A stretch of 64,000 nt of DNA. Origin: Acidobacteriota bacterium (GTDB lineage: Bacteria; Acidobacteriota; UBA890; WLXD01). The stretch covers positions 352,001-416,000 of the forward strand of contig CAXWPL010000002.1 of assembly GCA_963666215.2 (NCBI GenBank), given 5' to 3'. The translations under genes and the position numbers were made by a program. A model generated the notes under the pieces. That model was not told the DNA's origin, did not search any database, and worked only from the letters and a program-made list of their open reading frames with translations. Positions 29,949-45,378 of this stretch are shown one piece after another (within the stretch, counting starts at the first letter, position 1; the number at the start of each line of letters is the position of its first letter).

Positions 29949-30088
29949 TAAGGGCGATCGTAGGACCCGGATCGCCCAGCCGCGAGTGCCAACACGGATT
30001 GTCAGGCATCCTGCCGGATCCCGCCATTCCACAACCTCAGGCAAGTCTGAACACACGGAATGATCTTCCCCGCTTCGTCAAGACTCCC

Positions 30089-31567
30089 ATGAGCGCGCAT
30101 GTGAACCGCAGCGGTATCAGGCTCGTTCTCGGCCTCGCTCTCGTCTGCGCCGGGCTGTTTCTGTGTTCGGCGTGCGCTGGCTCAGAGGAGGGGAGCGCGC
30201 CTGCGTCGTCGGCCGCTCTCGGGGAGATCGATCGCCTCGTGCTCGTGACCTTCGACACGCTCCGGGCAGACCATGTGTCGGCGTACGGTTATCCGCTCGC
30301 CACCACGCCGTTTCTCGATTCGATGGCTGAAAGCGGCGTGCAGTTCAGGCGTGCCTTCGCACATTCCGCAGCCACCAAGCCGTCGCACTCCTCGATCTTC
30401 ACCTCGCTGTATCCGCTGCAGCATCGCGTGCGCAGCAACGCGCTGGTGCTCGACGAAGAGTTCGTCACGCTGGCCGAGATTCTGCGCGACGGTGGCTACA
30501 AGACAGCGGCGTTTCTGAGCATCGACGCACCCGTGGGTGGGCAGCTCGGGCAAGGATTCGAGACCTATGACGTGGAGGAGCGCGACCTCACAGTCGACGG
30601 CGCGCGGAAGGAATATCGGCACGCCGGCGAGACCATCGACGCTGCGCTGGCGTGGCTCGAAACGGTCGATCCCGATGAGCTTTTGTTCCTCTGGATTCAC
30701 GTCTACGATCCGCACAAGCCGCTGCGGCCGCCAGCCGGCCACTTCGCGACGATCAGCGTCGAGATCGAGCGCTTCGGGCCGCAAAATTTCCGCGAGCTGT
30801 TGCAGTCGCAGGGCATCGGTCCATTGAGCGACCGTGCCGTTGCCGACGTCGTCGACTACGACGCCGAGGTGCACTACGCAGACGCCGAGGTTGGGCGCCT
30901 GTATCGCGAGATGGAGGCGATGGGGCTGCAGGAAGAAACCCTCTGGGTGCTGACCTCGGACCACGGCCAGGGGCTCGGCTCGCACGGATGGTTTGGCCAC
31001 GGCAAGCAGATCTACAACTCCCAGCTGCAGGTGCCGCTGATCTTCCACACGCCCGACGGCACATTGGCTCCACGTCTGATCGAGACGCAGGTTGCTGAGC
31101 ACGTCGATCTGTTGCCGACAATCGTCGAGCTGCTCGGTGTGCCCGAAGCGGGCACCGCAGCCGTCGCCCAGCCGCTGCCGATGCAGGGCTCGTCGCTCGT
31201 GCCGTTCTTGCTCGGGCGGCGTCACGACGCCCCCAAGTGGTTCTCGTTCGGCGAGCGCAGCCGCTACATCGACGACAAGCCTCGCCAGCAGGATCGGCCC
31301 AACTACGAGGGCGGCTTCCGTTATTCGTTACAGGACCGCGAGTACAAGTACCTGCTGTTCACCGAGGGCCCCGACGAGTTCTACGACCTGCTCGCCGATC
31401 CGTACGAGGAGCACAACCTGATCGACTCTTTCGAGCACGCTGACAAGCGCGACCAGATGAGCTCGGTGCTCGCCGACATGGTCGCCAGTCTTACCAGCGA
31501 GGGGCAGGCGACATCCGTGTCGGCCGAAGACGTTGAGCGGCTCAGGAGCCTGGGCTACATCCAGTAG
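30089..31567 (+). CDS. Sulfatase-like lipoprotein with Thr at the nucleophile position and C-terminal LGY tail
   Basis: DTLRADH, ATKPSHSSIFTSLYP, HVYDPH, TSDHGQ, VPLI, YDLLADPYE, ERLRSLGYIQ*. Confidence 0.9.
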   Translation: MSAHVNRSGIRLVLGLALVCAGLFLCSACAGSEEGSAPASSAALGEIDRLVLVTFDTLRADHVSAYGYPLATTPFLDSMAESGVQFRRAFAHSAATKPSHSSIFTSLYPLQHRVRSNALVLDEEFVTLAEILRDGGYKTAAFLSIDAPVGGQLGQGFETYDVEERDLTVDGARKEYRHAGETIDAALAWLETVDPDELLFLWIHVYDPHKPLRPPAGHFATISVEIERFGPQNFRELLQSQGIGPLSDRAVADVVDYDAEVHYADAEVGRLYREMEAMGLQEETLWVLTSDHGQGLGSHGWFGHGKQIYNSQLQVPLIFHTPDGTLAPRLIETQVAEHVDLLPTIVELLGVPEAGTAAVAQPLPMQGSSLVPFLLGRRHDAPKWFSFGERSRYIDDKPRQQDRPNYEGGFRYSLQDREYKYLLFTEGPDEFYDLLADPYEEHNLIDSFEHADKRDQMSSVLADMVASLTSEGQATSVSAEDVERLRSLGYIQ

Positions 31568-31670
31568 CCCGTCCGCCGGCGTCGCGGACCAAGGGTGCAG
31601 GCGAGTTCGCCGCAGCCACGTGGCATAATCGCTCCCGCCGGGTCGTCCGAACGCTTGTCTTGGGGGTGCT

Positions 31671-33026
31671 ATGCATCGAAGGGGAATACCATCCGTTGCC
31701 AGTGCGACGCGCGCGCTGGTCGTGGTCGCGATTACCGTCTTGCTGACCGGCAGCCTGCCAGCCGGCGCCACCACGTACATCATGATGTCCGATGAGGACC
31801 TCGCCGACAGCTCGCCGGTTGTTGTGCGCGCACGCGTGCTCGACGCGCAGCCGTCGCCGACTGGACGTCCCTACACCGACTATCGACTCCAGGTCGAGCG
31901 CGTGGCGAAGGGTCGCGTCGCTGCCGATGCGCGGATCGTTATCAGCGTGCTCGGCGGCGGAACGCCAAGTCTACCGCAGCTGGCGGTTTGGGGCGAGCCG
32001 AGGTTCGAGGTGGGCGAGGACACGCTTCTGTTCCTGGCACCCGGCACGGCCGGGACTCCGGGCGCCTGGCAGGTGAATCACTTCGCGCTCGGCGCCTTCC
32101 GTGTGCATGAGCTCGGTGGTGTCTCGATGGCGCTGCGTTCCCTCGGCGAGATCGACGAGGTCGATAAGCCGGGCGGCGGTGAGCGCGTTGTCAGCGTGCA
32201 GCGCGCCCACCACCCTCGTGATCTGGACCGTTTCATGACCTGGGTCAAGGCGCGGAACGCCGGTGTGGACCTGCCGCAGGACTACTTCCTGGATCCGGCC
32301 GACGGAACGATGCGCAACGCCCACGACGGGTACGCTTTGCTTCTTGCCCCGTCGGGCACCCGTATCCGGTGGCCGAACTTCGACTTTGCCGCGGGAGCAC
32401 GGGTGGTGCGCTGGTTCATCGCGCGCACCCAAGCTGGCTTCCCTGGCGGTGGCCGCATCGACTTCAACCAGTCGATCAAGAAATGGGACAAGCTGAAGAA
32501 GGGCGCCATCATCGAGTATCGCGCTCCAGCGAAGCGGCGTAACGCCTTCACCTCGGGCTTCACTGCCTTCGATGGCAACAATACGATTCTGATGAACGAC
32601 CCGAACGGCGAGATTGCCAATCTGGTTGGCTGCACGGGCACGCTGGCGATTGGCGGGCCGTGGTTCATCGACGCTATCGAGCCGGAGGCCGCGAGCGGTG
32701 AGTTCCAAGCCGCGTCTGTCGGCAACTCACATCGCAAGCGGGGCAAGATCTTCCGCAACACCGTTAGTGCCGACATCATCAGCAACAATGGCCTCAAATG
32801 TTTCTACAACGCCAGTCCCAACAAGCGTAAGCATGCTCGGCAGCTCTACATGCACGAGCTCGGCCACACGTTGGGCCTGGGGCATTCGCTGGTCACGGTC
32901 GCCCTGATGTTCCCCAGCATCAGCCCGATCCCGAAAGACGTCATCAAGCCAGACGACTCGAAGGGCATCCGAATCAACGGCGGGATGCGCTACACGGAGG
33001 CCGGCGTGGCCTACAAAGCCCTGTAG
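31671..33026 (+). CDS. Secreted matrixin-type (metzincin) metalloprotease, paralog 1
   Basis: Signal peptide, HELGHTLGLGH, Met-turn ALMFP. Confidence 0.88.
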   Translation: MHRRGIPSVASATRALVVVAITVLLTGSLPAGATTYIMMSDEDLADSSPVVVRARVLDAQPSPTGRPYTDYRLQVERVAKGRVAADARIVISVLGGGTPSLPQLAVWGEPRFEVGEDTLLFLAPGTAGTPGAWQVNHFALGAFRVHELGGVSMALRSLGEIDEVDKPGGGERVVSVQRAHHPRDLDRFMTWVKARNAGVDLPQDYFLDPADGTMRNAHDGYALLLAPSGTRIRWPNFDFAAGARVVRWFIARTQAGFPGGGRIDFNQSIKKWDKLKKGAIIEYRAPAKRRNAFTSGFTAFDGNNTILMNDPNGEIANLVGCTGTLAIGGPWFIDAIEPEAASGEFQAASVGNSHRKRGKIFRNTVSADIISNNGLKCFYNASPNKRKHARQLYMHELGHTLGLGHSLVTVALMFPSISPIPKDVIKPDDSKGIRINGGMRYTEAGVAYKAL

Positions 33027-33050
33027 CCGCTAGCCTGCATCCGAGACGTA

Positions 33051-33092
33051 GCACCACGGCCCCGGGCTGCACGCGGCTCGGGGCCGTGGTGC
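33051..33092 (+). terminator. GC-rich hairpin after protease 1 (no U tract)
   Basis: GCACCACGGCCCCGGGC..GCTCGGGGCCGTGGTGC. Confidence 0.45.
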
Positions 33093-33418
33093 GTCAAGGC
33101 CGGCCTCGCGCGCCGCGCGCATCTCAACCCGGGTCGTGACGCGGGCAAGTTGAACCGCTCTGCAGGCGGGCGCTGCGCTCGCGGTGCGCACTGCCCCGCG
33201 GTGCGCACTGCGCCACAGGCGCCGCTCGGTGCGGCTCGGGGCCTCTCGAGGCCCCCGAAGCCTCTTCTCGTTGGCGATTGTCGTGGGCGGTCCACCGATG
33301 TCCGTGCGTGGCTTAGCAAATCCATCCACAGCAGATCAGAAGTGACTTTAAACAAGCAATACTGTTCCATAGTGGCCCACGAACGCCGTCAATACCTGTT
33401 GCGGATCTGGGGGGCATC

Positions 33419-34771
33419 ATGGATCGAAGACGAACATCACGCGCCGCCACTTCTCTGCGAGCGCTGGCGACAATCGCCGGCCTGTCTCTGATCGTGGGAA
33501 ACCTGGCAGTGGGCGCGACGACGTACGTGATGGTGTCGGACGAGGATCTGGTCGACAGCTCTTCGGTTGTTGTGCGCGCCCGCGTGCTCGACAAACAACC
33601 GGCGCCCGACGGGAGTCCCTACACCGACTATCGGATGCAGGTGGATCGCGTGGCGAAGGGCAGGATCGCTTCCAGCGCACGTATCGTGATCAGCGTTCTC
33701 GGTGGCGGGACTGCTGGACGACCGCAGTTGGCCCTGTGGGGTGTGCCGGAGTTCGACGTTGGCGAGGAGACGTTGCTGTTCCTCTCGGGGAGGTCGGGCA
33801 GCTCTTCGGGGTCTCGAGGCGCATGGCAGGTGAATCACCTGGCCCTGGGCGCGTTCCAGGTGCACGACATCGGTGGCTCGAAGGTCGCGCTCCGCGCTCT
33901 CGCCGAGATCGACGAGATCGAGAACTCCGATGCGCGAGAGCGGCCGATGAGTGTGCAGCGGGCTCACCACCCACGGGACGCCGATCTCTTCATGGGCTGG
34001 ATCAGGGCTCGCGAGGCTGGCGTGGACTTGCCGCAGACGTATTTTCTCGAGCCTTCGGACGGTCTGCTGCGGAACATCCACGACGGGTTCACGACTTCGC
34101 GTAGCGCGTCTAACTATCGCCTCCGCTGGCCAGACTTCGATCTTCAGCGAACCGTGCCGTGGAACGTTGCGGGCTATCAGGCCGGGTTGCCTGCCGGCGG
34201 GCGGTCCGACTTCAACCAGGCGCTTCGCAAGTGGGATCAGCTCGCCAAGGCGATCATCGACTACCGCGGCCCTGCCGTACGAAACAACGCGTTGGCGAGC
34301 GGATTCACCCGCTCGGACGGCAGGAACACGCTCCTGTTCAACGATCCGAACGGCAGGATCCCTGACCTGGTGAACTGCACAGGAGCTGTGGCCGTCGGCG
34401 GTCCGTGGTACGCGGATACGTCCGCGTCGGGGTGGTCCCATACCAAGCGCCGGATGATGTTCCGCAGTATCGTCGAGGCCGACATCATCAGCAACAACGG
34501 GCTGGGTTGCTGGCTCAAGAACAGCCCGAACACGCGGAAGCACGCCCGCCAGGTCTACATGCACGAGCTTGGCCACACCCTGGGCTTGGGTCATTCGTGT
34601 GGCGATTCCAAAAGTGGCTCGTGCAACACGAAGGCAAAGGACAACGCGTTGATGCGCGCCTACCTCTCCAAAGTGCCTGCCGACGTGATCCGACCCGACG
34701 ATTCGAGAGGTGCGCGACTCAACGGTGGGCTGCGCTACAACCGGCGCGGTGTGGGCTTCGTGAGCTTGTAG
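33419..34771 (+). CDS. Secreted matrixin-type metalloprotease, paralog 2
   Basis: Same architecture; HELGHTLGLGHSCGD, NALMRA. Confidence 0.88.
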   Translation: MDRRRTSRAATSLRALATIAGLSLIVGNLAVGATTYVMVSDEDLVDSSSVVVRARVLDKQPAPDGSPYTDYRMQVDRVAKGRIASSARIVISVLGGGTAGRPQLALWGVPEFDVGEETLLFLSGRSGSSSGSRGAWQVNHLALGAFQVHDIGGSKVALRALAEIDEIENSDARERPMSVQRAHHPRDADLFMGWIRAREAGVDLPQTYFLEPSDGLLRNIHDGFTTSRSASNYRLRWPDFDLQRTVPWNVAGYQAGLPAGGRSDFNQALRKWDQLAKAIIDYRGPAVRNNALASGFTRSDGRNTLLFNDPNGRIPDLVNCTGAVAVGGPWYADTSASGWSHTKRRMMFRSIVEADIISNNGLGCWLKNSPNTRKHARQVYMHELGHTLGLGHSCGDSKSGSCNTKAKDNALMRAYLSKVPADVIRPDDSRGARLNGGLRYNRRGVGFVSL

Positions 34772-34962
34772 GTGGCGACGTAGGTCCGCGGGTGTCCGTC
34801 GTTGTCAAGCAGCTTCGCCAGGGGTACGTCGCTTGGCTTCGAGCCGGTGCCACGATCGCCGCTCGTGCGAGACGTTGCCTGGTTGCCGTCGGGCTCCCCG
34901 AGGACCTGAGCGGGTGACGGACTCGATCCATCTCCGGGTGCCGAAGGTGGCCGTGGTCTGCA

Positions 34963-36298
34963 ATGAGTCAGCGATCCTCTCTTGTTGTCCTGGGCGTTTT
35001 GACCGCTTGTATCGTGCTCGCCGTCCTGACGGGGGGAATGCCGGCGGCGGCCACGACGTACGTCATGATGTCGGACGAAGACCTGGCGGACAGCTCGCCG
35101 GTTGTGGTCCGTGCGCGCGTCCTGGACAAGCAGCCGGCGCCAGATGGGCGTCCGTACACCGACTACCGCCTGCAGGTTGAGCGCGTTGCCAAGGGTCGGA
35201 TCGCCGTCGACACGCAGATCGTAGTCAGCGTCCTCGGCGCGGGGGTGCCGGGTCGGCCGCAGCTCTCGTTGTGGGGCGTGCCGGAGTTCGAGCCAGGCGA
35301 GGAGACGTTGCTGTTTCTCGACGGCTCCTCGGCTGGTACGCCAGGCTCATGGCAGGTGAACCACCTGGCCCTCGGGGCGTTCCGTGTTCTCGACATCGGT
35401 GGAGTGCAACTCGCCCTACGCGCCCTGGGAGAGATCAACGAGGTGGAACATCCCGATGCGGGCGACAGGCCCATGAGCGTTCGGCGCGCCCACCATCCGC
35501 GCGATCTCGATCGGGTCATGGGTTGGATCAAGGCGCGAGATGCAGGCGTTGATCTGCCACAGGACTACTTTCTCGAACCGGCGGAAGGTCTCGCGCGAAA
35601 CGCCCACGACGGGTACACCACCTTGAGCACGGCCTCCAGCTATCGCGTCCGGTGGCCGGACTTCGATCGCGGCAGCATTCTCGTTTGGTTTATCGCTCGC
35701 AACCAACCTGGCCTGCCGGACGGCGGACACAGAGCCTTCAACCAGGCACTGAACAGGTGGGACGATCTTGCCAATGCGATCATCGACGTGTGGACGCCGG
35801 CCCCAAGGAACGACTCGCTGGTGTCGGGTTTCTCGGCCAGCGACGGAAACAACACGCTCCTGATGAACGATCCCAACCACAGGATCCCCGATCTGGTGAA
35901 CTGTACTGGAGCGCTGGCCGTCGGCGGCCCCCTGGCACGTTGACTCGGAGGCGGCAGGGTGGTCGCACATCAAGCGCGGCATGATGTTCCGCAATATCGT
36001 AGAGGCCGACATCGTCAGCAACAACGGAATCGCCTGCTGGTTCAGGCAGAGTTCGAAGAAGTGGATGCATGCGCGGCAGCTCTACATGCACGAGCTCGGC
36101 CACACGTTGGGGCTCGGGCACTCGTGTGGTGATTCGGCTAGCGGGCCGTGTGACACGAGGTCGGAGAGCAACGCGCTGATGCGGGCGTCGACCTCGAAGA
36201 CTCCCTCCGACGTGATCCGAGCGGACGACTCGAGAGGGGTGCGATTCAACGACGGGCTGCGCTATACCCGTCGCGGCGTCGGATTCATCGATCGCTAG
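34963..36298 (+). pseudogene. Matrixin-type metalloprotease paralog 3, split by a +1 frameshift
   Basis: Removing one C from the C5 run at 35928-35932 gives GGPWHVDSEAAGWSHIKRGMMFRN, collinear with paralog 2; may be a sequencing error. Confidence 0.8.
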
Positions 36299-37119
36299 AT
36301 CGTGACGCCGAACCGGCCCTTGAGCGCGAAGGCGATGACGATCGTCAGAATGAAGAAGACGATCAGCCAGTGCGTCTCGAAGCCGAACAGGCCGACCTCT
36401 CGGTCGGGGTAGTCGACGCTGATCGAGGTCACCGACGAGTCGGCGGGTAGTGACGGCTCGGCCGGATAGAGCAGCTGATCGACGAACCGCGGTGCCAGCC
36501 GATCGGGCGAACGTCGAACGACGTTGTTGCCGACATCGATGGTCTTGGTCACCGTCTCACCGCCGATGCGTATCGGGAGCTCGTAGCTGCCCGGCTGGCT
36601 GGCCACGATACGGAAGGCGAGCTCACGTACGGCGGGAAACCAGGAGATGCTGCTGTCGGCGCCGAGCCCCTCCGGGAAGTCGACCTCCACGTCGGGACGC
36701 GTGCTGCCGGCCGACTCCGCCACGGTGATCTTCATCAGCACCGGCTCGCCAACCTTCAATCCCTCGTAGCCGTAGTGGAACTGCAGCTGCGCAATCACCA
36801 GCACAAACGGCAGCATCATCCAGAACATCGGGATGAGGTTGAGACGCATGTAGTTGAGGTTGTGCCTCAGGATGTCCCACTGGGCCCGGAAGATGGCGCG
36901 GATGTCATCGTTGAACAGGCGGATCTCGAACAACCCCGCGGCGATCTTGGCCTTTACGGCGGTGACCGCGTCCTGATTCGACGTTGCCTTGTAGCCCAGC
37001 AGCATGCCGATCGAGGCGATCACCGACACCACGCCGAGGCCGACCATTGGATGCAGCCCCCGGAAAGGCAGCAGTAGCAGGTCAAAGAGCGTGCGTAGGA
37101 GGCTGTTCAAGAGAGACAT
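36295..37119 (-). CDS. Three-TM membrane protein resembling DUF106/EMC3/TMCO1 (Oxa1 superfamily)
   Basis: N-terminal amphipathic helix, TM1, helical hairpin (SNQDAV..KAKI..RAQWDILRHN), Met/Pro-rich TM2 (LIPMFWMMLPF), beta-rich loop, TM3 starting HWLIVFF; family call from topology only. Confidence 0.6.
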   Translation of the reverse strand: MSLLNSLLRTLFDLLLLPFRGLHPMVGLGVVSVIASIGMLLGYKATSNQDAVTAVKAKIAAGLFEIRLFNDDIRAIFRAQWDILRHNLNYMRLNLIPMFWMMLPFVLVIAQLQFHYGYEGLKVGEPVLMKITVAESAGSTRPDVEVDFPEGLGADSSISWFPAVRELAFRIVASQPGSYELPIRIGGETVTKTIDVGNNVVRRSPDRLAPRFVDQLLYPAEPSLPADSSVTSISVDYPDREVGLFGFETHWLIVFFILTIVIAFALKGRFGVTI

Positions 37120-37155
37120 TCGTTCAGATACCGTGGATACCGTTCGGATGGGTGA

Positions 37156-37419
37156 GATCTCCCTTATTACTTGAGATCGAAGCGACGGGCGGCTCTGAGG
37201 AGCTAGGAAATGTAGCCCAGGCCCTGAAGCTTCTTGCGGATGTCGTCCTCTGAGTCGGCCTCCTCGAGAACCGCGAGCTCCTTTTCGAGCGCGTGCGTGA
37301 TGAACTCTTCGACCGACGAGTAGCCGGCGATGTTGGCGTACTTCTTCACCTTCGCGATGAGGTCCTTGTCGAGCTTGACCCTGCCGCCTCCGAACATGAT
37401 GTGATCTCCCTTATTACTT
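37156..37419 (-). repeat. Identical 17-bp direct repeat AAGTAATAAGGGAGATC (37156-37172, 37403-37419)
   Basis: Direct reading; the copies flank the 64-aa gene. Confidence 0.9.
37203..37397 (-). CDS. 64-aa RHH/CopG-like protein with LGY tail
   Basis: RVKLDKDLIAKVKKYA..GYSSVEEFITHALEKEL, then SEDDIRKKLQGLGYIS*; strong RBS. Confidence 0.85.
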   Translation of the reverse strand: MFGGGRVKLDKDLIAKVKKYANIAGYSSVEEFITHALEKELAVLEEADSEDDIRKKLQGLGYIS

Positions 37420-37432
37420 TCGCGCTAGTCAA

Positions 37433-39512
37433 CTATTCTGCGGGTTCGGGCTCGAGCGTGACCGGCGTGCTGCCGTCGGGGAACCCCTCGATACCAAACT
37501 CGGCGAGGAGGGTCGCGGCCAGATTCTGCAACGACGTCGCCTGACGGCCGAGCCGCTTGTTGGTGAACAGAACGCCCGGCACCGTCTCGTTCCTGATCCA
37601 TGATGTGGTCGCCTGACCAGTCGTCGAGGTTGTCGCCGATCCACTCCACAGGCATGCCGCCGAGCGCCGACGACCCCGAGCATGCCGCCGAGCGCCGACG
37701 ACCCCCGCGTGTGCCTTTCGCGAAGCCGACGATAATGTCGGGTCCGATCTCGAGGTGGCCACGGTCCTTGAAGTCGCGCTCCCGCACGTAGACGCGGGTG
37801 ACGGCCGGTTGGCCGGTCACGGGGTCGATTGCCGCAAGCAGGTCTCGCTCGAGCTGCTCGATCAACTCCTGGCGGTCGCCGGGCGCTACCACGCCTCGCG
37901 GCTCGCGGCCTCGTAGGTTCAGGTACAGCCCGCTGATGCCGAGCCCATAGGCCTGCGTGCGCCGCCAGTTGACGCCGGTCCAGAAGTCGGCCACCGGCAG
38001 CTTCGTACGGCGCTCGAGCTCCATGTATCCGCTGTCGACGAGCCAGGTGTTCAGATGGAACGAGCGTCGCCAGCTCGTGAAGCCGTGATCCGACATGACG
38101 ACGAGAGTGATGTCGTCGCCGGTTTCGTCGATGTAGTCGAGTGTACGGCCGACCATCTCGTCGAGGCGCTCGTACGCCTGGGGAATGGTGTCGGCGTAGG
38201 GCTCGTGCAGCTCGGGAACGTGCGCCGGATGGCCGGGGTCGAGCGTGACGCCCCAGAGGACGTGCGAGAGCTGGTCGAGGTTGCCGACGTAGTAGAAGAG
38301 GAACTCGCCCGTCCAGTTGTCGAGCATCCAGTCGTACTGCAGCCGATTCTCGCGGCCGATGATGCTCGCCTGGTGGACGAACTCGCCCGTGTCGAACAAA
38401 TCCCACTGGATCGCCTTGGTGTCCTCGGGCATCTCCTGGGTGTAGAAGCGCCCCGTGGCCTCGGCCATCTCCGCCGCGAAGCCCTCGGGGCTCGAGATCG
38501 GCATCGCGGGCGCCATCGGATCCATCTGGATCGGGCTCACGTAGAGCTCGAACTCGGGCTCCACCGACTTGAGGTAGAAGCGCACGATGCCGCTGATTGA
38601 TTGCAGGTAGGGGATGAGCTCGAACTCGACCTCGACCCAGTCGCTCCACTCGCCGGCCTCGAGCAGCAGCTCCTCATCGCCAACCACGAGCTTGGTGCCG
38701 CCGACGTCCGCGTCGATGTAGGCCGTGAATTCGCTCACGAGCTCTTCGGGCTCGATCAGCAGCGGGTGCGGTGGGCCGTACAGGGCACCCTCGAAGACAC
38801 CGTCGACGACGTCGGCCGGGTAGATCTTGCCGCCCGAGATGTTGCGGTTGAACTGGGTACGATCGGTGGTGAAGAAGTGGAACTCACCAGAGGTGCCGCG
38901 GAGGTCGGGCGTGCCCATACCGGAAAGCTCGTAGGTGCCGACTCCGACCGGCGGGAAGTTGGCCGGCATACGAATCATCGTGCTCTCGAAGCCGTTTTCT
39001 TCGAGCTGCTGCCAGAACGTGTCGCCGTATCGGGCGAGCTCGATGCCGCCGCCCGACAGGGGCAGCCGCCACTTGCCGATGTCGATCGTGCGGCCGACCG
39101 GGATCTCCTTGCTCGTGGCTTGATACGGCGTTCCGAACGGGAAGGGTGAGTCTTCGACCTCTCGGTGCAAGAAATCGAATATGCCGTGGCCGCCGCTATC
39201 GAGGCCGGTGATGAAGTTCGACCAGGCAACTGGACTCTGCGGCGAGTACGCGGTTTCGAGCGGCGAGAAGCCGCCTTGCTGGGCGACACGCGCCAGGTTC
39301 GGGAGGCGGCCCTGCTCGATGAGCTCGGTTGTGAACTCGTGGTCCATGCCGTCGAAGCCGAGGACGATCATGCGCTGACGTGGCGATTGGGCGCCCGCCG
39401 ACGCTGCTACCAGCGAGCTGGCGACAACCGCGACCGCAGGTGCCGTAAGTGCCGTAAGTGCCAGCAGGCCGATGGAACCGAGCAGAGTCCGAGTACGCGT
39501 TCGGAGGGTCAT
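37433..39512 (-). CDS. Exported alkaline-phosphatase-superfamily (NPP/type I phosphodiesterase-like) protein; apparent frameshift near 37590
   Basis: Signal peptide ..AGA-Q, VLGFDGMD, PQSPVAWSNFITG, DQLSH, MSDHGF, WSGDH; natural tail ETVPGVLFTNK..LAATLL lies in the frame ending 37433. Confidence 0.88.
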
Positions 39513-41746
39513 GGCGCGTTGTCTCCGGCATTCGAAAGCGTCAAGGCCTTCCCGTCCATATGAGGTGGCGGCTGCAGGCCGAACTGCTCGAGCGCGGTGG
39601 GGGCGATGTCGATGAGCGACGGCTCGTCTTCTTGCATATCACGGTTGCAGAAGATCACGCCCGGCACCAGCCGTGGATCGACGCAATGGTCACCGCTCCA
39701 CGCCTTGACGTTGTCCTCGAACAGCGGTGCCGAAACAACGCCGGTGGCGCAGTCCCACGAGGTTCGGTAGCCGCGGTTGTAACCGATGATGAACTCGGGG
39801 GCGTTCTCGAGATAGGGGCCCTGGTACAGCTTGGCGGTATCGAACGCTTCGATGATCGCCACCTCGCCGGTTTCAAGGTCGATGAGGCCCTCGAGCTTGG
39901 CGGCGATCTCTTCCTTGAGCGCCGCGACCTCGGTCTTGTGGACGATACCCTGACCCTCGCGGTCCTTGATGTTGAAGAACATGCCCGACAGGCCGAGGCA
40001 ATAGGCCTTGGTCTGTGACCAGTCAACATCGAGCAACCACTCGGCTTTTCCTGCCTCGGCGCCCGACTCGGTCGCGGTCGGCTTCAGCGTGAGGTAGCCG
40101 TTGTCGAGTAGCCATCGATTGAGGTTCACACCGCGGCGGAAGGAGGCGAAGCCGTGGTCCGAGAGCACCATCAGTAGGTCGCCGTCGCGCAGCTTGTCGA
40201 TGACCTCGCCGACCAGCTCGTCGTTGCGGATGTAGAGCTCTTCGATCGTGTCGTGGCAATCGCTTCTGTCGCCATTGCCGTTGGTTGCAGCGCCATTCCG
40301 GCTGTTCCCACCGGCCGCCAGCGCAGCCGGATGATCGTTCTCCAGATACCGCCAGAACATGTGCTGGATGCGGTCGGTGGCGTCGAACACGCACACCAGG
40401 CAGCCCTTGTGCAGGCGGTCCCAGGCCGCCCAGAACATCTCCTTGCGCTCGTCGTCGATGTCGAACGTCAGCTGCTTGAAGTGGCGGTCCTCAATGACCT
40501 TCTCGTTGAGCGCCCAGGTGTCTTCGGCGAGGCCGAGCGTCGAGTACTTACCCTGTAGCTTCGACAGATAGATCGCGTAGTAGTCGGGATGCGAGATGGG
40601 CATCGCCGGCTTTTCCGGATCCAGAGCGATGGGTGTCATGTAGAGCGAGAAATGAGGTTCGAGCTCGGTGATCATGATCCGGACAATACCCCTGACCTTG
40701 ACGCCCGGGACGGCGGGGAATGCCAGCTCGGTCCAGTCAGACAGCTCGTTGACCTTCAGCGATAGGTCCTTGTCGCCGACCTTGAGCTCGACGGTCCCAG
40801 TGGTCACATCGAAGGAGCCCGAGAGCGGCAGCTCGAGGGGCGGCGTTCCCACCCGCATGGAGTTCTCGGGGCCGGTGAGCGTGCCCTCGAACGCGTTGCC
40901 GTTGACTGTCACCGGCATGCGCATGCCGCCCTCCTTGAACTTGCCCTCTTCGGGCTTGTTCGTGAAGAGCAAGAACGTGCCCTGTGTCCCGAGTAGGTCC
41001 GGCACACACATCGCTGAAAGCTGGGCTCCATAGAACCGGTCGGGAGGGAAGGTAATCGGCACCCGCAGCACAGTGCTCCAGATGTTGTGCTCGCCGAGTA
41101 TCGTCCAGAAGGGCTTCGATTTGCGCAGTAGCCGCAGCTCAGGCTTGTCTCGCGGAATCTGGAACGGCCCGAGCTTGAGGTACCTGTCGACCGAGCCGAT
41201 CTTGGTGGACGACAGCACGGGCAGGTAGGTCCGTCGGTCGCGGTCGAGAAAGTCGTAGATGTTGTGGCGCGCCGGGTGGCTGCCGGTGGAGAACGACGAC
41301 CAGGCCACCGGAGAGATCGACGGGAACGTGGTCTTGAGCGGCTTGTAGGAGCCCATCTCGCCGAGCCGCTTGAAGTTGGGCAGCTTGCCCTCGGCCATGA
41401 AACGGTCGGTGAGCTGCGGGTCTTGCCCGTCGAAGCCCACGACGATCATCCGCTTGATCTTCGGGGTCGCCCTCGTTCGCCTCGTGAGCGCCCGCCACAG
41501 CATGCGGAACGGCCAGATCAACAGCGACAGGAACGCCACCAGCATCGTTGTGAACAGCACCATGAAGCTGGTCACGAAGGCGAAACCCGCTCCCGGGCCA
41601 ACGTAGGCCTCGGCTACCGTTGGCGTTAGCGTAGCGGCCGCCATTAGCGCGAGCGTTACGGCGATCGCAACGCGGCGAGCGCTTGCGCTGCCGTCTTCGA
41701 TTCGGATTCGACTAGATCGCCCTGTCACAGCGTTCGCACCGGCCAT
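39509..41746 (-). CDS. Membrane-anchored alkaline-phosphatase-superfamily (NPP-like) protein with N-terminal YVGPG motif
   Basis: Signal-like segment ending AEA-YVGPGAG, TM helix, basic stretch, VGFDGQD, PSISPVAWSSFSTG, DRIQH, LSDHGF, WSGDH, DIAPT. Confidence 0.92.
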   Translation of the reverse strand: MAGANAVTGRSSRIRIEDGSASARRVAIAVTLALMAAATLTPTVAEAYVGPGAGFAFVTSFMVLFTTMLVAFLSLLIWPFRMLWRALTRRTRATPKIKRMIVVGFDGQDPQLTDRFMAEGKLPNFKRLGEMGSYKPLKTTFPSISPVAWSSFSTGSHPARHNIYDFLDRDRRTYLPVLSSTKIGSVDRYLKLGPFQIPRDKPELRLLRKSKPFWTILGEHNIWSTVLRVPITFPPDRFYGAQLSAMCVPDLLGTQGTFLLFTNKPEEGKFKEGGMRMPVTVNGNAFEGTLTGPENSMRVGTPPLELPLSGSFDVTTGTVELKVGDKDLSLKVNELSDWTELAFPAVPGVKVRGIVRIMITELEPHFSLYMTPIALDPEKPAMPISHPDYYAIYLSKLQGKYSTLGLAEDTWALNEKVIEDRHFKQLTFDIDDERKEMFWAAWDRLHKGCLVCVFDATDRIQHMFWRYLENDHPAALAAGGNSRNGAATNGNGDRSDCHDTIEELYIRNDELVGEVIDKLRDGDLLMVLSDHGFASFRRGVNLNRWLLDNGYLTLKPTATESGAEAGKAEWLLDVDWSQTKAYCLGLSGMFFNIKDREGQGIVHKTEVAALKEEIAAKLEGLIDLETGEVAIIEAFDTAKLYQGPYLENAPEFIIGYNRGYRTSWDCATGVVSAPLFEDNVKAWSGDHCVDPRLVPGVIFCNRDMQEDEPSLIDIAPTALEQFGLQPPPHMDGKALTLSNAGDNAP

Positions 41747-41750
41747 CCGT

Positions 41751-43085
41751 TCAGCTCGCTTTTGGTTCGTTCTGGTCGTCGCTCTCGTTTCTCTCGTGGT
41801 CTCTCTCACATTCTCTCTCCAGCAGACCGGCCAGCTCGCCGATCCATAAGTCGCCGTCGATGGGCTGCGGCGAGAGCAAGAACGCGTCGTCGTAGGTATG
41901 CATTCCGACGAGGTCGGTACGATCGAAGGTGCGCGTCGCCCTGGGCGACGCCTTGAGATCGAATCCCGGCTCGGCCAGAACGACCAGATCCGGACCTTTC
42001 GGAACCCGCGGGCCCGCGTAGATCGCGCTAGCGTCGTAGACTTCGCGAATCGCAGCCGCGCCATCATACCGCAGCTCGCGCAGCCGGTTTTGTAGCTCGA
42101 ACATCAGTGATTTCGCCTCTCCCGGCGCCACGCTGCCGCGCGCGAAGCGGCCGCGACGGTGGATGTAGATGCGGCCGGGATCGAGGGCGAAGGCGCGCGA
42201 ACGCCCGGAGATGGTCTCGAGTCCCAACTGCGGCTCCGAGTCGAACTCCAGGTAGCCGTTCTCCTGCAGCCAGTGGTTGAGCTGGACCTCCTGGCGGATG
42301 GCGCAGAACCCATGGTCGGACAGCAGCCAGGTGCGCTCGCGACAATTCAGCCGATCGAGGATCTCGCCGATCAGCGCGTCGACGGCGCGATGGTAGTCAA
42401 GCGCTTGTTCATGCCGTGGGTGCGAAGGGTCGACGAGGGAGTCCCAAAGGTAGTGATACAGGCGGTCGGTTCCGGTCACGACGATCTGCAGAAAGTCCCA
42501 GTCGACCGACTCCGAGAGGTGGATGAGGGCTTCGCGCCGCGTACGCAGCGACTCGTCCAGCTGTTCGAACAACAGGTCGTGGTCGGTTCGGCAGCGCCCG
42601 GTGTCGATGTCGATGCGGTAGCCCATGCGCCGTAATGGCGCCAGGTGCGTGAGGGGCTTGATTGACTTGGCGAGATCGATCGCCACGAACCCCGAAACGA
42701 TCGCGCCGGGGATGGAGCGTGCCGGGTAGGTTGCCGGTTGGTTGAGCACGACGGATGTGAGACCGCGAGCGCCGAGTCGGTCCCACAAGGTGTCAACCTG
42801 AAGGTCACGGAAGCTCGGAAACCGTAGCTCGTAGGTGTCGACATCGATGTCGGTAAAGCCGAAGATGCCGTGCGTGCCGGGGTCGACGCCGGTCATGAAG
42901 CTCGACCAGCTCACCGACGAGATCTCGGGCAACGACGCGCGGATCTTGCGTAACGAGCCTGATGGGCGAGACTCGATCAGCTCCGCGAGCCGGGGCATGA
43001 CCCCGGAGCCGGTGAGTTGCAGAATCAACCCGTGCGGCACTCCGTCGAGCCCGATGACGCAGGTCCGTCGTCTACCTCCGTTCAT
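41751..43085 (-). CDS. Cytoplasmic alkaline-phosphatase-superfamily (NPP-like) protein
   Basis: No signal peptide; IGLDGVP, PEISSVSWSSFMTG..HGIFGF, DRLYH, LSDHGF, GMHTYDDA. Confidence 0.92.
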   Translation of the reverse strand: MNGGRRRTCVIGLDGVPHGLILQLTGSGVMPRLAELIESRPSGSLRKIRASLPEISSVSWSSFMTGVDPGTHGIFGFTDIDVDTYELRFPSFRDLQVDTLWDRLGARGLTSVVLNQPATYPARSIPGAIVSGFVAIDLAKSIKPLTHLAPLRRMGYRIDIDTGRCRTDHDLLFEQLDESLRTRREALIHLSESVDWDFLQIVVTGTDRLYHYLWDSLVDPSHPRHEQALDYHRAVDALIGEILDRLNCRERTWLLSDHGFCAIRQEVQLNHWLQENGYLEFDSEPQLGLETISGRSRAFALDPGRIYIHRRGRFARGSVAPGEAKSLMFELQNRLRELRYDGAAAIREVYDASAIYAGPRVPKGPDLVVLAEPGFDLKASPRATRTFDRTDLVGMHTYDDAFLLSPQPIDGDLWIGELAGLLERECERDHERNESDDQNEPKAS

Positions 43086-43095
43086 GGGCCCGACT

Positions 43096-43695
43096 CTACA
43101 GGTAGCCCAGCGCTTGCAGTCGCTGCTTGATCGCCTCTTCCTCTTCGGGCGTTGTGTCGTCGTCCTCGCCGGGCGGGACGTAGCCGAGCAACTCGAGCGA
43201 GGTGAGGATCTTGTCGAGGCTCTGTTGCAGCGTCTCGGCCTCGGTATCGCACACAATCTCGGGCTTCAGCGGTTCTTCGTACGGGTCCGAGATCCCTGTG
43301 AAGTTCTTGATCTCGCCGGCAAGCGCCTTCTTGTACAGGCCCTTGGGGTCGCGCTCCGACAGGTGCTCGATTGAGCAAGTCGCGTAGACCTCGACGAAGT
43401 TGTCCATGCTCTCGCGCACCTCGTCACGCACCGATCGGTACGGCGAGATGGCCGCCGAGATCGCCACCACACCGTTGCGCGACAGCAAGTTGCAGACGTA
43501 GCCGATGCGTCGAATGTTGATGTCGCGGTCTTCCTTCGAGAACGTGAGGCCCTTGCTGAGGTTGGTGCGGACCTCGTCGCCGTCGAGGATCTCAACCCGG
43601 TGGCCGCGCTCGCGGAGTAGGGGAGCGAGCGCGTTCGAGATCGTCGACTTTCCGGCTCCTGAGAGACCGGTGAACCAGAGGGTGAAGCCTTGCAT
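43096..43695 (-). CDS. cysC: Adenylyl-sulfate (APS) kinase with extra LGY tail
   Basis: WFTGLSGAGKST, LDGDEVR, ISPYR, RDPKGLY, FTGISDPYE; tail EEEEAIKQRLQALGYL*. Confidence 0.97.
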   Translation of the reverse strand: MQGFTLWFTGLSGAGKSTISNALAPLLRERGHRVEILDGDEVRTNLSKGLTFSKEDRDINIRRIGYVCNLLSRNGVVAISAAISPYRSVRDEVRESMDNFVEVYATCSIEHLSERDPKGLYKKALAGEIKNFTGISDPYEEPLKPEIVCDTEAETLQQSLDKILTSLELLGYVPPGEDDDTTPEEEEAIKQRLQALGYL

Positions 43696-43771
43696 GACGT
43701 ACTCCGAAAAGGGTGCGGGGTTGAGCCTGTGGCGGGAATCTTGCGGCTTGCGAAGCCGAACCGGCAGCTGG

Positions 43772-44947
43772 CTAGGCCTTGACGGCGGCCGGCTGCTCGA
43801 TGCCCTGAAAATGCTGCTTGAGGATCGCGGCTATTTCCGGCCGGGTGAACTCGGCCGGTAGGTCCTCGCCGTTTCCGAGCATCTCGCGGATGTTGGTGCC
43901 GCTCAGGAACACGTGGTCTTCCTTGCCGTGCGGGCAGGTTTTTGTCGATCCCATGTTGCCGCAGGCGTTGCAGAAGAACGCATGGTCGAAGAAGAGCGGC
44001 GTGATGCCGATCTCCAACCGATCAAACTCCTGGAAAATCACGTGAGCATCGTAGGTGCCGTAGTAGCCGCCAACCCCAGCGTGATCGCGACCCACGATGA
44101 AGTGTGTGCACCCATAGTTCTTGCGCACGATGGCGTGGAATACGGCCTCACGCGGGCCGGCGTAGCGCATCGCCGCCGGCAGAATCGACATCGCCACGCG
44201 ATCTGGCGGGTAGTAATTGTCGAGCAGAGCGAGGTAGCACTTGAGGCGCACGTCGGCTGGAATGTCGTCCGACTTGGTCTCGCCCATGATCGGGTGGATC
44301 AGCAGCGCATCGACCATCTCGAGGGCGCACTTCTGTAGGTACTCATGTGCCCGGTGGATCGGGTTACGCGTCTGGAATGCGGCCACGCTGTTCCAGCCCT
44401 TGGCCTTGAACAGCACACGCGTCTCGCGCGGGTCAAGCCGGTAGCGTTCCAGCTCGTCGTCTTGCGGCCGCTCGATCACCGTGACCTGGCCGCCGAGGTA
44501 AACATCGCGGGAACGGCGCAGGTAGCCAACTCCGGGGTGCGCGTCGTCGGTTGTACGGAGAACCTTGAGCGCTTCGCGCTCTTTGTCGGGGGTGTAGATG
44601 TTGGAGATCTCGATCATGCCGAACACGGTGCCAGCCTCGTCGACGAGCGCGGCCTCGGTATCGGGCGCCAACCTCTGCGCTTCCTCGGGGCTGCAGCTGA
44701 GCGTGATCGGGATCGTCCAGGGCAGGCCGTTGGCCAGCCGGCCGTTCTCACAGACGCTGTCGTAGTCCGACCGACCCAGGAAGCCGGTGAGTGGGCTCAG
44801 CGCTCCGGTCGCGATCATCTCGAGGTCGCTTGCCTCGCGGCGGTTCATTACGATCTCGGGTAATCCGCCGAGTCGAGCGCGGAGCGCCGTAGTTTCGTCG
44901 TCGGTTGCGAAGCGGCTTACCAGGCGGCCGCCGTGGGCTTTGATCAT
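43772..44947 (-). CDS. sat: Sulfate adenylyltransferase (ATP sulfurylase)
   Basis: [36 protein letters not shown]. Confidence 0.98.
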
Positions 44948-45162
44948 CAGAGGTACCCCAGGTTTTCGAGTTTCTTACGAATCGCACTGAGCTCGTCGGG
45001 TGGCAGATCGTTGTTCCCCGGCTCTGGGCTCAGGGTGCCGACGAGGTCGCGCAGGACGAACACGATGAAGTCTGTCGGCGAGCTGAAACCGGATCCGTCG
45101 ATGACCTCGACGAGCCGGTTGTACAGCGGCCGCGGAATCTTGATGCTGACGCGATCGCTCAT
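44947..45162 (-). CDS. 71-aa RHH/CopG-like protein with LGY tail
   Basis: [30 protein letters not shown], then [15 protein letters not shown]; stop overlaps the sat start. Confidence 0.88.
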
Positions 45163-45206: not shown

Positions 45207-45235
45207 GATTGGGTCCTGATTGGGTCCTGATTGTA
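45207..45235 (-). promoter_or_regulatory. -10 box TACAAT overlapped by 11-bp tandem repeats (candidate operator)
   Basis: Minus strand TACAATCAGGACCCAATCAGGACCCAATC, about 45 nt upstream of the RHH gene. Confidence 0.5.
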
Positions 45236-45378
45236 CCCCAATTAGAGCCGGGCGCTAGTCAGCTAGTCACCCCTCGCAAGAAATTTAATCGCCGGCGCGC
45301 TGTCCAGAAGCCACGCGAGCGTCGCCCCAGTTGCGACCCTACGGATCGGATCGCCCTATTGCGCCAGCTGCAGCCCAG

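Follow-up and report, generated by a model that had tools for sequence, protein, structure and literature searches.

Four proteins encoded in the window (the whole 64,000-nucleotide stretch analysed here) end in the same C-terminal motif, hxxLxxLGY(I/L)x, in their ORF translations, and all four C-termini match exactly those quoted in the original prediction. As was also claimed, the carriers belong to three unrelated folds: a sulfatase-like protein of the AP fold, two small RHH proteins and the P-loop kinase CysC. The ending, called here the LGY tail, has three parts: a mostly acidic linker that is disordered, a single amphipathic helix, and a Leu-Gly-Tyr that does not vary; a literature search found no description of it. 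With moderate confidence, we propose that the tail is a portable docking peptide for the catalytic clefts of AP-fold enzymes, and that RHH71, the product of the first gene of a conserved sulfate-activation operon, is an autoregulator linked to a pathway enzyme.

The LGY tail and its carriers

The sulfatase-like protein (30089..31567, + strand; PF00884, E 2.4e-42) is a putative lipoprotein of the threonine-type AP fold that bears the tail in cis, as EDVERLRSLGYIQ (31526..31567, +); its ORF (29915-31567, +) opens at 29915, with 30089 as the likely start. Identification as a formylglycine sulfatase was rejected, T-K-P-S-H (AATKPSHSS) replacing C-x-P-x-R. In the AF2 model (mean pLDDT 83.9), the tail helix spans residues 479-488, most of it within a block (481-490) of mean pLDDT 80, and the preceding linker falls below 50. 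The LGY tail is the usual ending of some 16 threonine-type ‘sulfatase-like’ paralogs in this genome and is found in 0/5 of its true CxPxR sulfatases. Among solved structures, the folds nearest to this model belong to phosphonate monoester hydrolases, dimeric arylsulfatases and choline sulfatase, with SmCS 6fny, RlPMH 2vqr, 4upi and 4upl as top matches.

RHH71 (71 aa; 44947..45162, −; 414 homologs) has AF2 helices at residues 11-21, 29-44 and 55-68, its tail helix being encoded at 44947-45000 (−), and RHH64 (64 aa; 37203..37397, −), a small RHH-like paralog with 31% identity to it, ends in EDDIRKKLQGLGYIS (37203-37250, −). The RHH assignment is tentative: RHH71 matches the RHH of NikR at E 0.046, Foldseek matches have E above 0.1 (the best-ranked of these weak fold matches include ParD structures) and Pfam gave no hit. 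The ending itself is strictly conserved, which supports the portable module originally envisaged: LGY closes 80/80 RHH71 and 49/49 RHH64 orthologs (mostly as GLGYIS in the latter), and L65, L68, G69 and Y70 do not vary among RHH71 homologs or, together with K64, across 43 RHH sequences. Among 149 diverse RHH cluster representatives, 113 end in LGY, seven have LGY within the last 40 residues and three retain G-Y, and Phe replaces the Tyr in 0/123 of these tails.

CysC, an APS kinase (43096..43695, −; PF01583, E 6e-60; NF002059, 270 bits against a cut-off of 244), ends in EEEAIKQRLQALGYL. Its tail is an addition of residues 174-199, PPGEDDDTTPEEEEAIKQRLQALGYL (43096-43176, −), PDB alignments stopping at residue 173, where an internal LELLGYV (167-173) forms the native end of the APS-kinase fold. 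The RHH profile matches one CysC tail at E 1.4e-3 (model positions 42-73). Only 19/70 CysC orthologs have the tail, and about 6/70 have an L-N-F or L-S-F variant in the same place. An AlkP_C ortholog lies directly downstream of CysC in 16/18 tailed loci, compared with 0/41 tail-less and 0/5 L-N-F loci, an association that reflects few independent events because the split follows operon lineages; the five Thermotogota CysC proteins examined are tail-less, though AlkP_C-like genes are present there.

The terminal motif occurs in four of the 752 ORFs of the window, where approximately 0.035 would be expected by chance. Across the entire genome (54,013 ORFs of 50 aa or more, read from stop to stop in all six frames), L..LGY occurs 111 times at any position, and 27 of these occurrences, two of them exact contig-end duplicates, end 1-2 residues before the stop, against about 2.5 expected for three terminal registers; most of the terminal cases are paralogs within a single enzyme family, which leaves three independent carriers in this genome: sulfatase-like, RHH and CysC. 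The Tyr stands one, two or more residues from the C-terminus, and is internal in TPR-fused forms: three proteins of this genome (L018-L020) have an internal LRALGY(I/L)GG followed by TPR repeats. In other phyla the operon has further LGY-tailed neighbours, 14 among 11,914 ORFs, including a small putative lipoprotein in eight Planctomycetota loci.

Operon context and upstream repeats

The operon is conserved in at least eight phyla and comprises RHH71, sat, cysC, three NPP-type AP-fold enzymes, RHH64 and a membrane protein. In the window, the start of Sat (ATP sulfurylase; 43772..44947, −; PF01747, E 4.7e-98; PF14306) overlaps the RHH71 stop by 1 nt. The three NPP-type enzymes are AlkP_C (41751..43085, −; 444 aa, soluble; PF01663, E 1.6e-35), AlkP_B (39509..41746, −; PF01663, E 1.1e-25), which has N-terminal hydrophobic segments and an ORF that opens at 42067 with an estimated start at 41746, and AlkP_A (37425..39512, −; PF01663, E 4e-28), whose reading frame shifts between 37582 and 37596 in a tblastn comparison with the L022 ortholog. 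Their C-termini bear out the earlier observation that all three lack the tail; only one of 56 AlkP_A orthologs has it in cis (L067, ...DEVRALGYVE). The last gene of the conserved operon encodes a 274-aa membrane protein (36295..37119, −) that follows RHH64 in 47/80 loci; searches of Pfam and NCBIfam found no family for it, and a weak lead (0.86) points to EMC3_TMCO1. Upstream of RHH71 lies a gene for a CysQ-like PAP phosphatase (45379..46236, −; PF00459, E 8.8e-54), which adjoins RHH71 in 8/80 loci.

A set of 80 loci covered Acidobacteriota, Planctomycetota, Eisenbacteria, Gemmatimonadota and others; in it, RHH71 is accompanied by CysC in 73 loci, Sat in 69, AlkP_B in 62, AlkP_A in 61, RHH64 in 49 and the membrane protein in 47. 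RHH-LGY genes are linked to an AlkP_C-like gene even in distant phyla. They are present in 21/151 Thermotogota genomes, and all six Thermotogota regions examined contain an AlkP_C-like gene, whose start the RHH gene overlaps in one (L117) and with which it forms a divergent pair in two (L120, L122). AlkP_C is absent from Planctomycetota operons, where any receptor would therefore need to be another AP-fold paralog.

Immediately upstream of RHH71 are operator-like 11-bp tandem repeats (45207..45242; GATTGGGTCCT on the + strand, ATCAGGACCCA on the gene strand), of which TRF reports 2.5 copies of period 11 with 100% matches at 45207-45233. The repeats are conserved in related loci, and loci of other phyla show this periodicity upstream of RHH71 as well: offset-11 self-matches average 2.62 per RHH71 upstream window against 0.08 per random window, at least two such matches occur in 32/77 upstream windows against 12/725 random windows, and of the offsets from 5 to 20, 11 alone is enriched upstream of RHH71. 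Pairs of repeat units spaced 11 or 22 bp apart occur in the 64-kb window only at 45208-45242, in a scan whose pattern was written after seeing the sequences, leaving the offset-11 self-similarity as the only unbiased comparison. Such conservation makes RHH71 probably an operator-binding regulator of its own operon, with DNA binding predicted from sequence, and speaks against the idea that the RHH part serves only as a dimerising scaffold.

Modelled docking and competing explanations

Complex modelling covered one pair, AlkP_C with the tail of RHH71 (residues 36-71), and gave scores of 0.92, 0.90 and 0.92, whereas the best of three controls reached 0.02. The score mark is reached by 58/80 solved complexes and 2/110 mismatched pairs, counts that hold only roughly because the analysis used its own alignments. 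Across the model runs, at least 79% of contacts agree and the partner pLDDT is at least 64. The modelled tail spans the catalytic cleft of AlkP_C, and its contact residues (60-65 and 67-71) are exactly the conserved residues of the tail. On the enzyme, the predicted contacts include I55, next to S56 (the aligned counterpart of the nucleophile Thr in Xanthomonas NPP 2gsn), together with the invariant F77, P121, F133, D159, D207, R208 and H211; a set of 21 sequences shows no variation at D14, D207, H211, D257, H258 and H396. In the closest pairs listed, Tyr70 meets F77, while L68 and G69 pair with D207, R208 and H211. The proposal that the tail works in trans, as a docking peptide for AlkP enzymes that have no tail of their own, gains partial support, for AlkP_C and at the level of modelling, from this complex and from the linkage of RHH-LGY to AlkP_C-like genes.

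Under the docking proposal, RHH71, RHH64 and CysC would supply the tail in trans, and the receptor would be a site on AP-fold enzymes, either the catalytic cleft or the way into the active site; the candidates in this locus are the tail-less AlkP_C, AlkP_B and AlkP_A, among which the natural receptor, like the regulatory coupling, is something we infer. RHH71 would bind the 11-bp repeats at its own promoter and so autoregulate the operon, and docking of its tail on a pathway enzyme would couple the abundance or occupancy of that enzyme to transcription, a logic akin to that of trigger enzymes and antitoxins; docking could also gate the enzyme. By its own tail, CysC, the kinase that makes PAPS, may be anchored at a site of this type, although a channelling role is awkward because a peptide in the active site would block catalysis. 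The membrane separates the cytoplasmic RHH proteins and CysC from the other tail carriers, which are putative lipoproteins and membrane-anchored sulfatase-like enzymes; this makes a single receptor protein impossible, and the claim must therefore concern a class of receptor.

An unlikely alternative is that the tail is a self-association helix that needs no heterologous receptor, joining RHH dimers into tetramers or cooperatively on neighbouring 11-bp repeats, much as the C-terminal helix does in the Mnt repressor, and enzyme protomers to each other. It would suit the narrow, heptad-like stripe formed by the hydrophobic residues (L, I, L, L) of the RHH71 tail, the spacing of the repeats at one helical turn, fit for cooperative binding of RHH dimers, the tandem RHH-LGY units of one cluster representative (P0228) and the oligomerisation mediated by C-terminal extensions of related AP enzymes (PMC5870055). 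It leaves unexplained, however, why an APS kinase should have the same linker and helix, as the RHH profile match to a CysC tail indicates, and why Gly-Tyr is so strict, and the hetero-complex model argues against it. Less probable is the absence of any shared function, with L-x-x-L-G-Y-hydrophobic a common C-terminal helix stop or cap that arose independently in three families. The solved APS kinase 7yq0 does end in ...LMELGYL as part of its own fold, as the equivalent LELLGYV does inside the CysC domain here, so part of the tail likeness could be a general helix ending, and a single paralogous family makes up most of the genome-wide excess. Yet three independent carriers lie within 15 kb against the chance expectation given above, the motif is invariant over phyla without exchange of Tyr for Phe, it follows a disordered linker rather than sitting on a domain, and further LGY-tailed genes adjoin the operon elsewhere.

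It is quite improbable that the Tyr is itself a substrate or carrier, onto whose hydroxyl an AP-fold enzyme moves an APS- or PAPS-derived sulfo, phospho or nucleotidyl group; a Tyr carrier for the sulfo group was the second option in the original prediction. The persistence of Tyr in RHH tails and orthologs, the modelled placement of L68-G69-Y70 at a catalytic centre whose conserved AP-type residue set is complete, and an operon that makes PAPS and among whose proteins in the window no Pfam sulfotransferase family is matched would all fit. Against such a general role stand the L-N-F and L-S-F variants of CysC, the variable and at times internal position of the Tyr and the inaccessibility of PAPS to exported carriers; moreover, the modelled Tyr70 touches F77, leaving D207, R208 and H211 to L68 and G69. 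The TPR fusions of L018-L020 could instead suggest a TPR-domain ligand that connects AP-fold enzymes with TPR scaffolds as an adaptor, but this is very doubtful, as no TPR protein was found among operon proteins scanned with Pfam or matched by tblastn, and the cytoplasmic carriers lack a TPR neighbour. Least credible is a sorting, secretion or degradation signal: C-terminal placement on proteins of different folds would be in keeping with one, but the carriers combine cytoplasmic enzymes and regulators with proteins that have signal-peptide-like N-termini, the tail lacks a hydrophobic anchor, and it also occurs internally.

Comparison with known systems

A close structural parallel is with the oligomerisation arms of the AP superfamily, as seen in SmCS 6fny, RlPMH 2vqr and the dimeric arylsulfatases 4upi and 4upl, where the C-terminal extension crosses to the opposing protomer and reaches the entrance of its active site (PMC5870055). 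Those arms are long, specific to a family and part of the same polypeptide family, whereas the LGY tail is a helix of some 15 residues on a flexible linker that is also found on non-AP RHH proteins and an APS kinase, and was modelled onto a tail-less NPP-type enzyme.

Microcompartment encapsulation peptides, encapsulin cargo-loading peptides and HbYX tails are likewise short terminal sequences, borne on flexible linkers by cargo proteins that are otherwise unrelated. The locus showed no shell or proteasome genes, LGY carriers, unlike encapsulation peptides and HbYX proteasome-activator tails, span two cell compartments, and the penultimate Tyr that HbYX needs is present in only two of the four LGY tails. 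The Mnt repressor of phage P22 also combines an RHH domain with a helix at its C-terminus, which in Mnt forms a tetramer, but the LGY helix sits on enzymes too.

For the proposed coupling, a precedent is the ‘trigger enzyme’ control of Bacillus subtilis, in which the C-terminal tail of the transcription factors TnrA/GlnR docks on glutamine synthetase, a pathway enzyme, and links enzyme state to gene expression; TnrA/GlnR are of the MerR-type fold rather than RHH, the enzyme and motif differ, and both DNA and enzyme binding are predicted here. RHH antitoxins of the ParD, CcdA and RelB types resemble RHH71 in their N-terminal operator-binding RHH (predicted for RHH71), in a disordered C-terminus that becomes a helix on a partner enzyme (modelled for RHH71) and in a gene that stands first in the operon and overlaps the next. 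They differ in that the proposed partners here are metabolic enzymes, not toxins, that the operon is long, and that a second RHH copy and a kinase bear the same tail.

LGY tails across one genome

Four proteins of the window end in the same manner, with an acidic linker, an amphipathic helix and the motif L..LGY set one or two residues before the stop codon (the LGY tail). Translation of the open reading frames (ORFs) bears out the C-termini as worded in the original prediction: a sulfatase-like protein (29915-31567, plus strand) ends in EDVERLRSLGYIQ, the 64-residue RHH64 (37203-37397, minus strand) in EDDIRKKLQGLGYIS and CysC, the APS kinase (43096-43695, minus strand), in EEEAIKQRLQALGYL, each directly before the stop, and the 71-residue RHH71 (44947-45162, minus strand) is likewise LGY-tailed. 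The register of the Tyr varies, with GYL closing two of the window tails and GYIQ and GYIS the other two, and many orthologs of the tailed proteins end GYLD or GYLE. As the distance from Tyr to the C-terminus is not fixed, a PDZ or HbYX ligand was dropped as an explanation; the penultimate Tyr of HbYX proteasome-activator tails is missing from the GYIQ and GYIS endings. A membrane-targeting helix was set aside for its narrow hydrophobic stripe and charged flanks, as was an encapsulation peptide, there being no shell genes and carriers in two compartments.

The tail is far more frequent at protein ends than chance would provide. Among six-frame ORFs of at least 50 aa (54,013 ORFs in the 4.65-Mb genome) L..LGY occurs 111 times, 27 of them one or two residues before a stop against about 2.5 expected; within the window, 4 of 752 ORFs carry the tail against about 0.035 expected. 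Sixteen of the 17 further tail-bearing ORFs scanned (L001-L017) contain PF00884 and/or the sulfatase C-terminal subdomain PF16347, and L005, the seventeenth, follows immediately downstream on a PF00884 match with a broken frame and is thus the end of a split gene; four short or doubtful tailed ORFs were left out of this Pfam scan (C1:583054-583566, C3:413971-414765, C5:699133-699795 and C5:456517-456744). Counted from the domain (35 of 36 PF00884 matches, one fragment being excluded), the tail stands at the end of 16, including two contig-end duplicates, one match ends AMGYIQ and in another the motif is internal. The assembly is redundant at or near contig ends (C1:7906-11294 is identical to C3:413971-417357, and C1:759699-760058 to C4:1062110-1062469), so that paralog counts are inflated by two.

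The window sulfatase-like protein has the PF00884 domain but lacks the formylglycine motif C/S-x-P-x-R, reading AATKPSHSS where its tailed paralogs read T-x-P-S-H; it is thus not a formylglycine (type I) sulfatase, and all five CxPxR genes of the genome are without the tail. The LGY tail is therefore the regular ending of one large threonine-type family of the alkaline phosphatase (AP) fold, not of formylglycine sulfatases, and its independent carriers in this genome are that family, two small paralogous proteins and CysC. The AF2 model of the window protein averages pLDDT 83.9; most of the tail helix (479-488) falls in a block averaging 80, and the preceding linker is below 50. The best fold matches of the model are phosphonate monoester hydrolases, dimeric arylsulfatases and choline sulfatase. 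The last of these has a substrate tunnel lined in part by three residues of its tail (PMC5870055). Among the closest relatives of solved structure, the docking of a terminal arm at the active-site entrance of another AP-fold chain is therefore established, and the LGY tail would amount to a small, portable form of such AP-superfamily C-terminal arms.

RHH71, RHH64 and operator-like repeats

Neither RHH71 nor RHH64, which aligns to RHH71 as a paralog (31% identical), matches a Pfam or NCBIfam family at E up to 0.01. RHH71 has 414 homologs counted as 90% clusters and 1,589 representatives at 50% identity (E up to 0.001), some labelled by their sources as CopG/Arc/MetJ regulators. Its profile finds a weak match in the PDB to the ribbon-helix-helix (RHH) domain of NikR (E 0.046, residues 6-54). 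The AF2 monomer has helices at residues 11-21 and 29-44, no assigned structure over residues 1-10, a linker at 45-52 that is disordered (pLDDT below 50) and, at 55-68, a terminal helix; most of the Foldseek matches listed, the best included, are RHH proteins (Reg576, ParD, NikR, Arc, CopG), all with E above 0.1.

The tail is present on 80 of 80 RHH71 and 49 of 49 RHH64 orthologs, and K64, L65, L68, G69 and Y70 are invariant in a 43-sequence RHH71 alignment. Among 149 of the best 150 representatives (P0125 left out), 113 end in LGY plus zero to four residues, seven have LGY within the last 40 residues, three keep the G-Y pair (VGY, PGY, AGY) and the other 26 mostly match the N-terminal part only. 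None of the 149 has Phe at the Tyr position; the original prediction had staked itself on the Tyr not being freely replaced in homologs, and within the RHH family this holds. A search for longer, fused forms of RHH71 returned five matches of 128-200 aa and no clear fusion. Longer relatives do occur among the representatives: P0228 has tandem RHH-LGY units with two LGY tails, and in P0254 and P0278 the RHH-LGY unit is preceded by an N-terminal RHH-like segment and a further domain.

The stretch separating cysQ from RHH71 contains a perfect 11-bp tandem repeat (45207-45233, 2.5 copies), which a further degenerate unit extends to about 45242. The repeat stretch is kept in seven related Acidobacteriota loci, downstream of a promoter-like pair (TTGCA, 16-17 nt, TACGAT); the -35 region of the window is poor, and a sigma-70 scan of 45100-45420 returned no promoter at threshold. 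Other phyla have tandem units of the type GATTGGAGTGC. With a unit pattern written after the sequences had been seen, at least two units occur within 200 nt upstream of RHH71 in 58 of 77 loci, at a dominant spacing of 11, and upstream windows hold 2.75 units against a background of 0.12. An unbiased test for 8-mers repeating with at most one mismatch at offsets of 5-20 gave, at offset 11, 2.62 matches per RHH71 upstream window versus 0.08 in 725 random windows, with no other offset in that range enriched; two or more offset-11 matches were found in 32 of 77 upstream windows versus 12 of 725 random ones. Repeated operator-like sites thus stand beside the RHH gene. An RHH protein that regulates its own operon would require tandem sites of this kind, a helical turn apart by the operon's first gene, from which we infer that RHH71 binds DNA. 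The RHH71 promoter region has a second perfect tandem repeat (45254-45269, GCTAGTCA, 2 copies), which sits farther upstream than the 11-bp repeats by about 20 nt and is not conserved in the related loci aligned.

A sulfate-activation operon and the added tail of CysC

On the minus strand, a CysQ-like gene (45379-46236, PF00459) and RHH71 are followed by Sat, the ATP sulfurylase (43772-44947, PF01747), CysC, three enzymes matching PF01663 "Phosphodiest" (AlkP_C, 41751-43256; AlkP_B, 39509-42067; AlkP_A, 37425-39512), RHH64 and a 274-aa membrane protein (36295-37119). As had been noted, all three PF01663 enzymes end without an LGY tail; their matches (E 4e-28 for AlkP_A, 1.1e-25 for AlkP_B and 1.6e-35 for AlkP_C) place them among AP-fold enzymes of the NPP, or type I phosphodiesterase, kind. 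The reading frame of AlkP_A changes at 37582-37596, with the last ~45 codons, which encode the conserved C-terminus, in ORF 37433-37762; the assembly is wrong at this point or the frameshift is genuine. The membrane protein matches no Pfam or NCBIfam family and falls in atlas clusters that are all hypothetical (Aminicenantota, Acidobacteriota, Planctomycetota), with a weak lead (0.86) to EMC3_TMCO1, a family related to YidC-type insertases.

The order RHH71, Sat, (X), CysC, (AlkP_C), AlkP_B, AlkP_A, RHH64, membrane protein is conserved. Of the best 80 of 392 relatives from a species-genome scan, many of them cut by contig ends, 73 loci have CysC, 69 Sat, 62 AlkP_B, 61 AlkP_A, 49 RHH64, 47 the membrane protein and 8 CysQ; in Planctomycetota, X is a small AP-fold protein of STM4013-like type, and in Eisenbacteria-type loci a PF01663 protein of ~460 aa. 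Further LGY-tailed genes occur beside the operon (14 of 11,914 ORFs). They include convergent sulfatase-like genes at L022-24, L045 and L075 and, in eight Planctomycetota loci (L049, L061, L064, L066, L069, L073, L084 and L100; about 9000-9800, minus strand), a small putative lipoprotein divergent from RHH71, of ~150-170 aa with a signal peptide, a lipobox-like Cys, an L..LGYL ending and no Pfam family. A single AlkP_A ortholog, that of L067 (16411-18456), carries an acidic linker and DEVRALGYVE in cis, among 56 complete AlkP_A C-termini.

In the Thermotogota-type phylum to which locus L074 belongs, 21 of 151 genomes also have RHH-LGY genes. All six Thermotogota regions fetched have an AlkP_C-like PF01663 gene, four have sulfate-activation genes (CysC with Sat or CysD/CysN) and one a Na/sulfate symporter. 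In L117 the second RHH gene and the AlkP_C-like gene overlap at the start of the latter, in L120 and L122 a single RHH gene is divergent from the AlkP_C-like gene, and L074 has an RHH gene, a PHP phosphoesterase and a second RHH gene, with sulfotransferase-family (Sulfotransfer_3-like) and TauE-type genes nearby. Sulfate activation and an NPP-type AP-fold enzyme are, on these loci, the constant companions of RHH-LGY. The gene content across the window and L021-L122 amounts to synthesis of PAPS (Sat or CysDN, CysC, and CysQ or a PHP phosphatase), and the window operon (36295-46236) contains no Pfam sulfotransferase, only AP-fold enzymes.

CysC itself is an APS kinase (PF01583, E 6e-60; NF002059, 270 bits against a cut-off of 244) and aligns over residues 2-173 to 5cb6 (E 3e-60), its PDB alignments ending at residue 173. 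The native end of the solved kinase 7yq0, LMELGYL, aligns with LELLGYV at residues 167-173 of the window protein. Two things follow: residues 174-199 (PPGEDDDTTPEEEEAIKQRLQALGYL) are an extra linker and helix repeating the motif, and L..LGY-hydrophobic can be an ordinary helix ending. The LGY tail is present in 19 of 70 CysC orthologs, and about six more have an acidic linker and a helix ending L-N-F or L-S-F. An AlkP_C ortholog lies directly downstream of CysC in 16 of 18 LGY-tailed loci, 0 of 41 tail-less ones and 0 of 5 L-N-F loci; the division runs along operon lineages, so that few independent events lie behind it. The CysC tail was rejected as a marker of AlkP_C (16/18 versus 0/46), being confounded by lineage and contradicted by the five Thermotogota CysC proteins examined, from which the LGY tail is absent. 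In a Planctomycetota subgroup (L064, L066, L073, L077 and L084) the CysC tail ends EEEEQIKGRLKSLNFID, with Gly to Asn and Tyr to Phe changed together, and an AlkP_C ortholog is absent from these five loci. In a word search, CysC residues 160-199 matched eight proteins, all APS kinases, which gives no census of other carriers.

A modelled receptor site and competing readings

The original prediction took the tail for a docking peptide or a Tyr sulfo-carrier and proposed co-folding with the AlkP enzymes, and the one pair modelled, AlkP_C (444 aa, 21-row alignment) with RHH71 residues 36-71, lends weight to docking. Three runs scored 0.92, 0.90 and 0.92 versus 0.02 for the best of three controls; among solved complexes 58 of 80 attain the mark applied, and among mismatched pairs 2 of 110, counts that hold roughly here as our own alignments were used. 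Contact agreement was at least 79% and partner pLDDT at least 64. The confident tail contacts (RHH71 residues 52-53, 57-58, 60-65 and 67-71) coincide with the conserved helix and LGYL, and those of AlkP_C include I55, F77, P121, F133, D159, D207, R208 and H211. S56 of AlkP_C aligns with the nucleophile Thr of Xanthomonas NPP (2gsn), and D14, D207, H211, D257, H258 and H396, which we take from the family to be metal ligands, are invariant in 21 sequences. The model thus places the tail across the catalytic cleft. We know of no solved complex of this kind, so that a score owed to an already solved structure seems unlikely. The model supports binding of AlkP_C by the RHH71 tail, without showing it.

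We would give an even chance to the reading that the tail helix docks on AP-fold enzymes, with the threonine-type sulfatase-like family carrying it in cis and RHH71, RHH64 and, in some lineages, CysC providing it in trans. RHH71 would then be an operator-binding regulator whose tail ties it to an enzyme of its own pathway, and docking could serve sensing, inhibition, scaffolding by a two-tailed RHH dimer or tethering of the kinase. One must consider that this reading is weakened by its single complex model, by tail carriers in two cell compartments, by Planctomycetota operons without AlkP_C and by the weak scores behind the RHH assignment. Self-association or cooperativity through the tail is a less likely rival. 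A general helix cap with no common partner has the native LMELGYL end of 7yq0 in its favour, as an ordinary helix ending, and appears improbable. A Tyr acting as carrier or substrate is quite unlikely, and hardly better can be said of a TPR ligand; LRALGY(I/L)GG is internal and followed by TPR repeats in three proteins of the genome. A sorting or degradation signal is very improbable.

A bolder form of the docking reading, which we regard as improbable, makes LGY an active-site-directed peptide for AP-fold enzymes, such that RHH regulators and APS kinase would insert Leu-Gly-Tyr into an NPP-type catalytic centre. The Tyr would be either a nucleotide mimic, with substrate and regulator in competition and the enzyme serving as the repressor's sensor, or a transiently sulfated or nucleotidylated carrier, and the operon would encode an undescribed PAPS-using pathway without a classical sulfotransferase. 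Known kinds akin to the LGY system are the terminal arms of the AP superfamily, antitoxin-like RHH tails and trigger-enzyme control. Full-text searches of the literature yielded no account of either motif or operon. What appears new is the predicted receptor site, the putative operators in conserved 11-bp repeats, the way in which the CysC tail and its L-N-F variant follow lineage, and the strict lack of a tail on true CxPxR sulfatases. A very large group of mis-named "sulfatases" is marked by the tail, as is a sulfate-activation operon that spans at least eight phyla and for whose AP-fold enzymes no role is known. With the modelled site, a motif that recurs without explanation gains a hypothesis that can be tested. 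Were a regulator's tail to read the occupancy of a catalytic cleft, it would be a new example of enzyme-sensed control of transcription and a way towards learning how these AP-fold enzymes use activated sulfate.

The interval from the sulfatase-like gene to the operon contains three tandem paralogs of ~450 aa (31671-36298, plus strand) with the metzincin motif HELGHTLGLGH and weak matches to Peptidase_M10 and Reprolysin_5, the third copy being split into 34963-35943 and 35981-36298.
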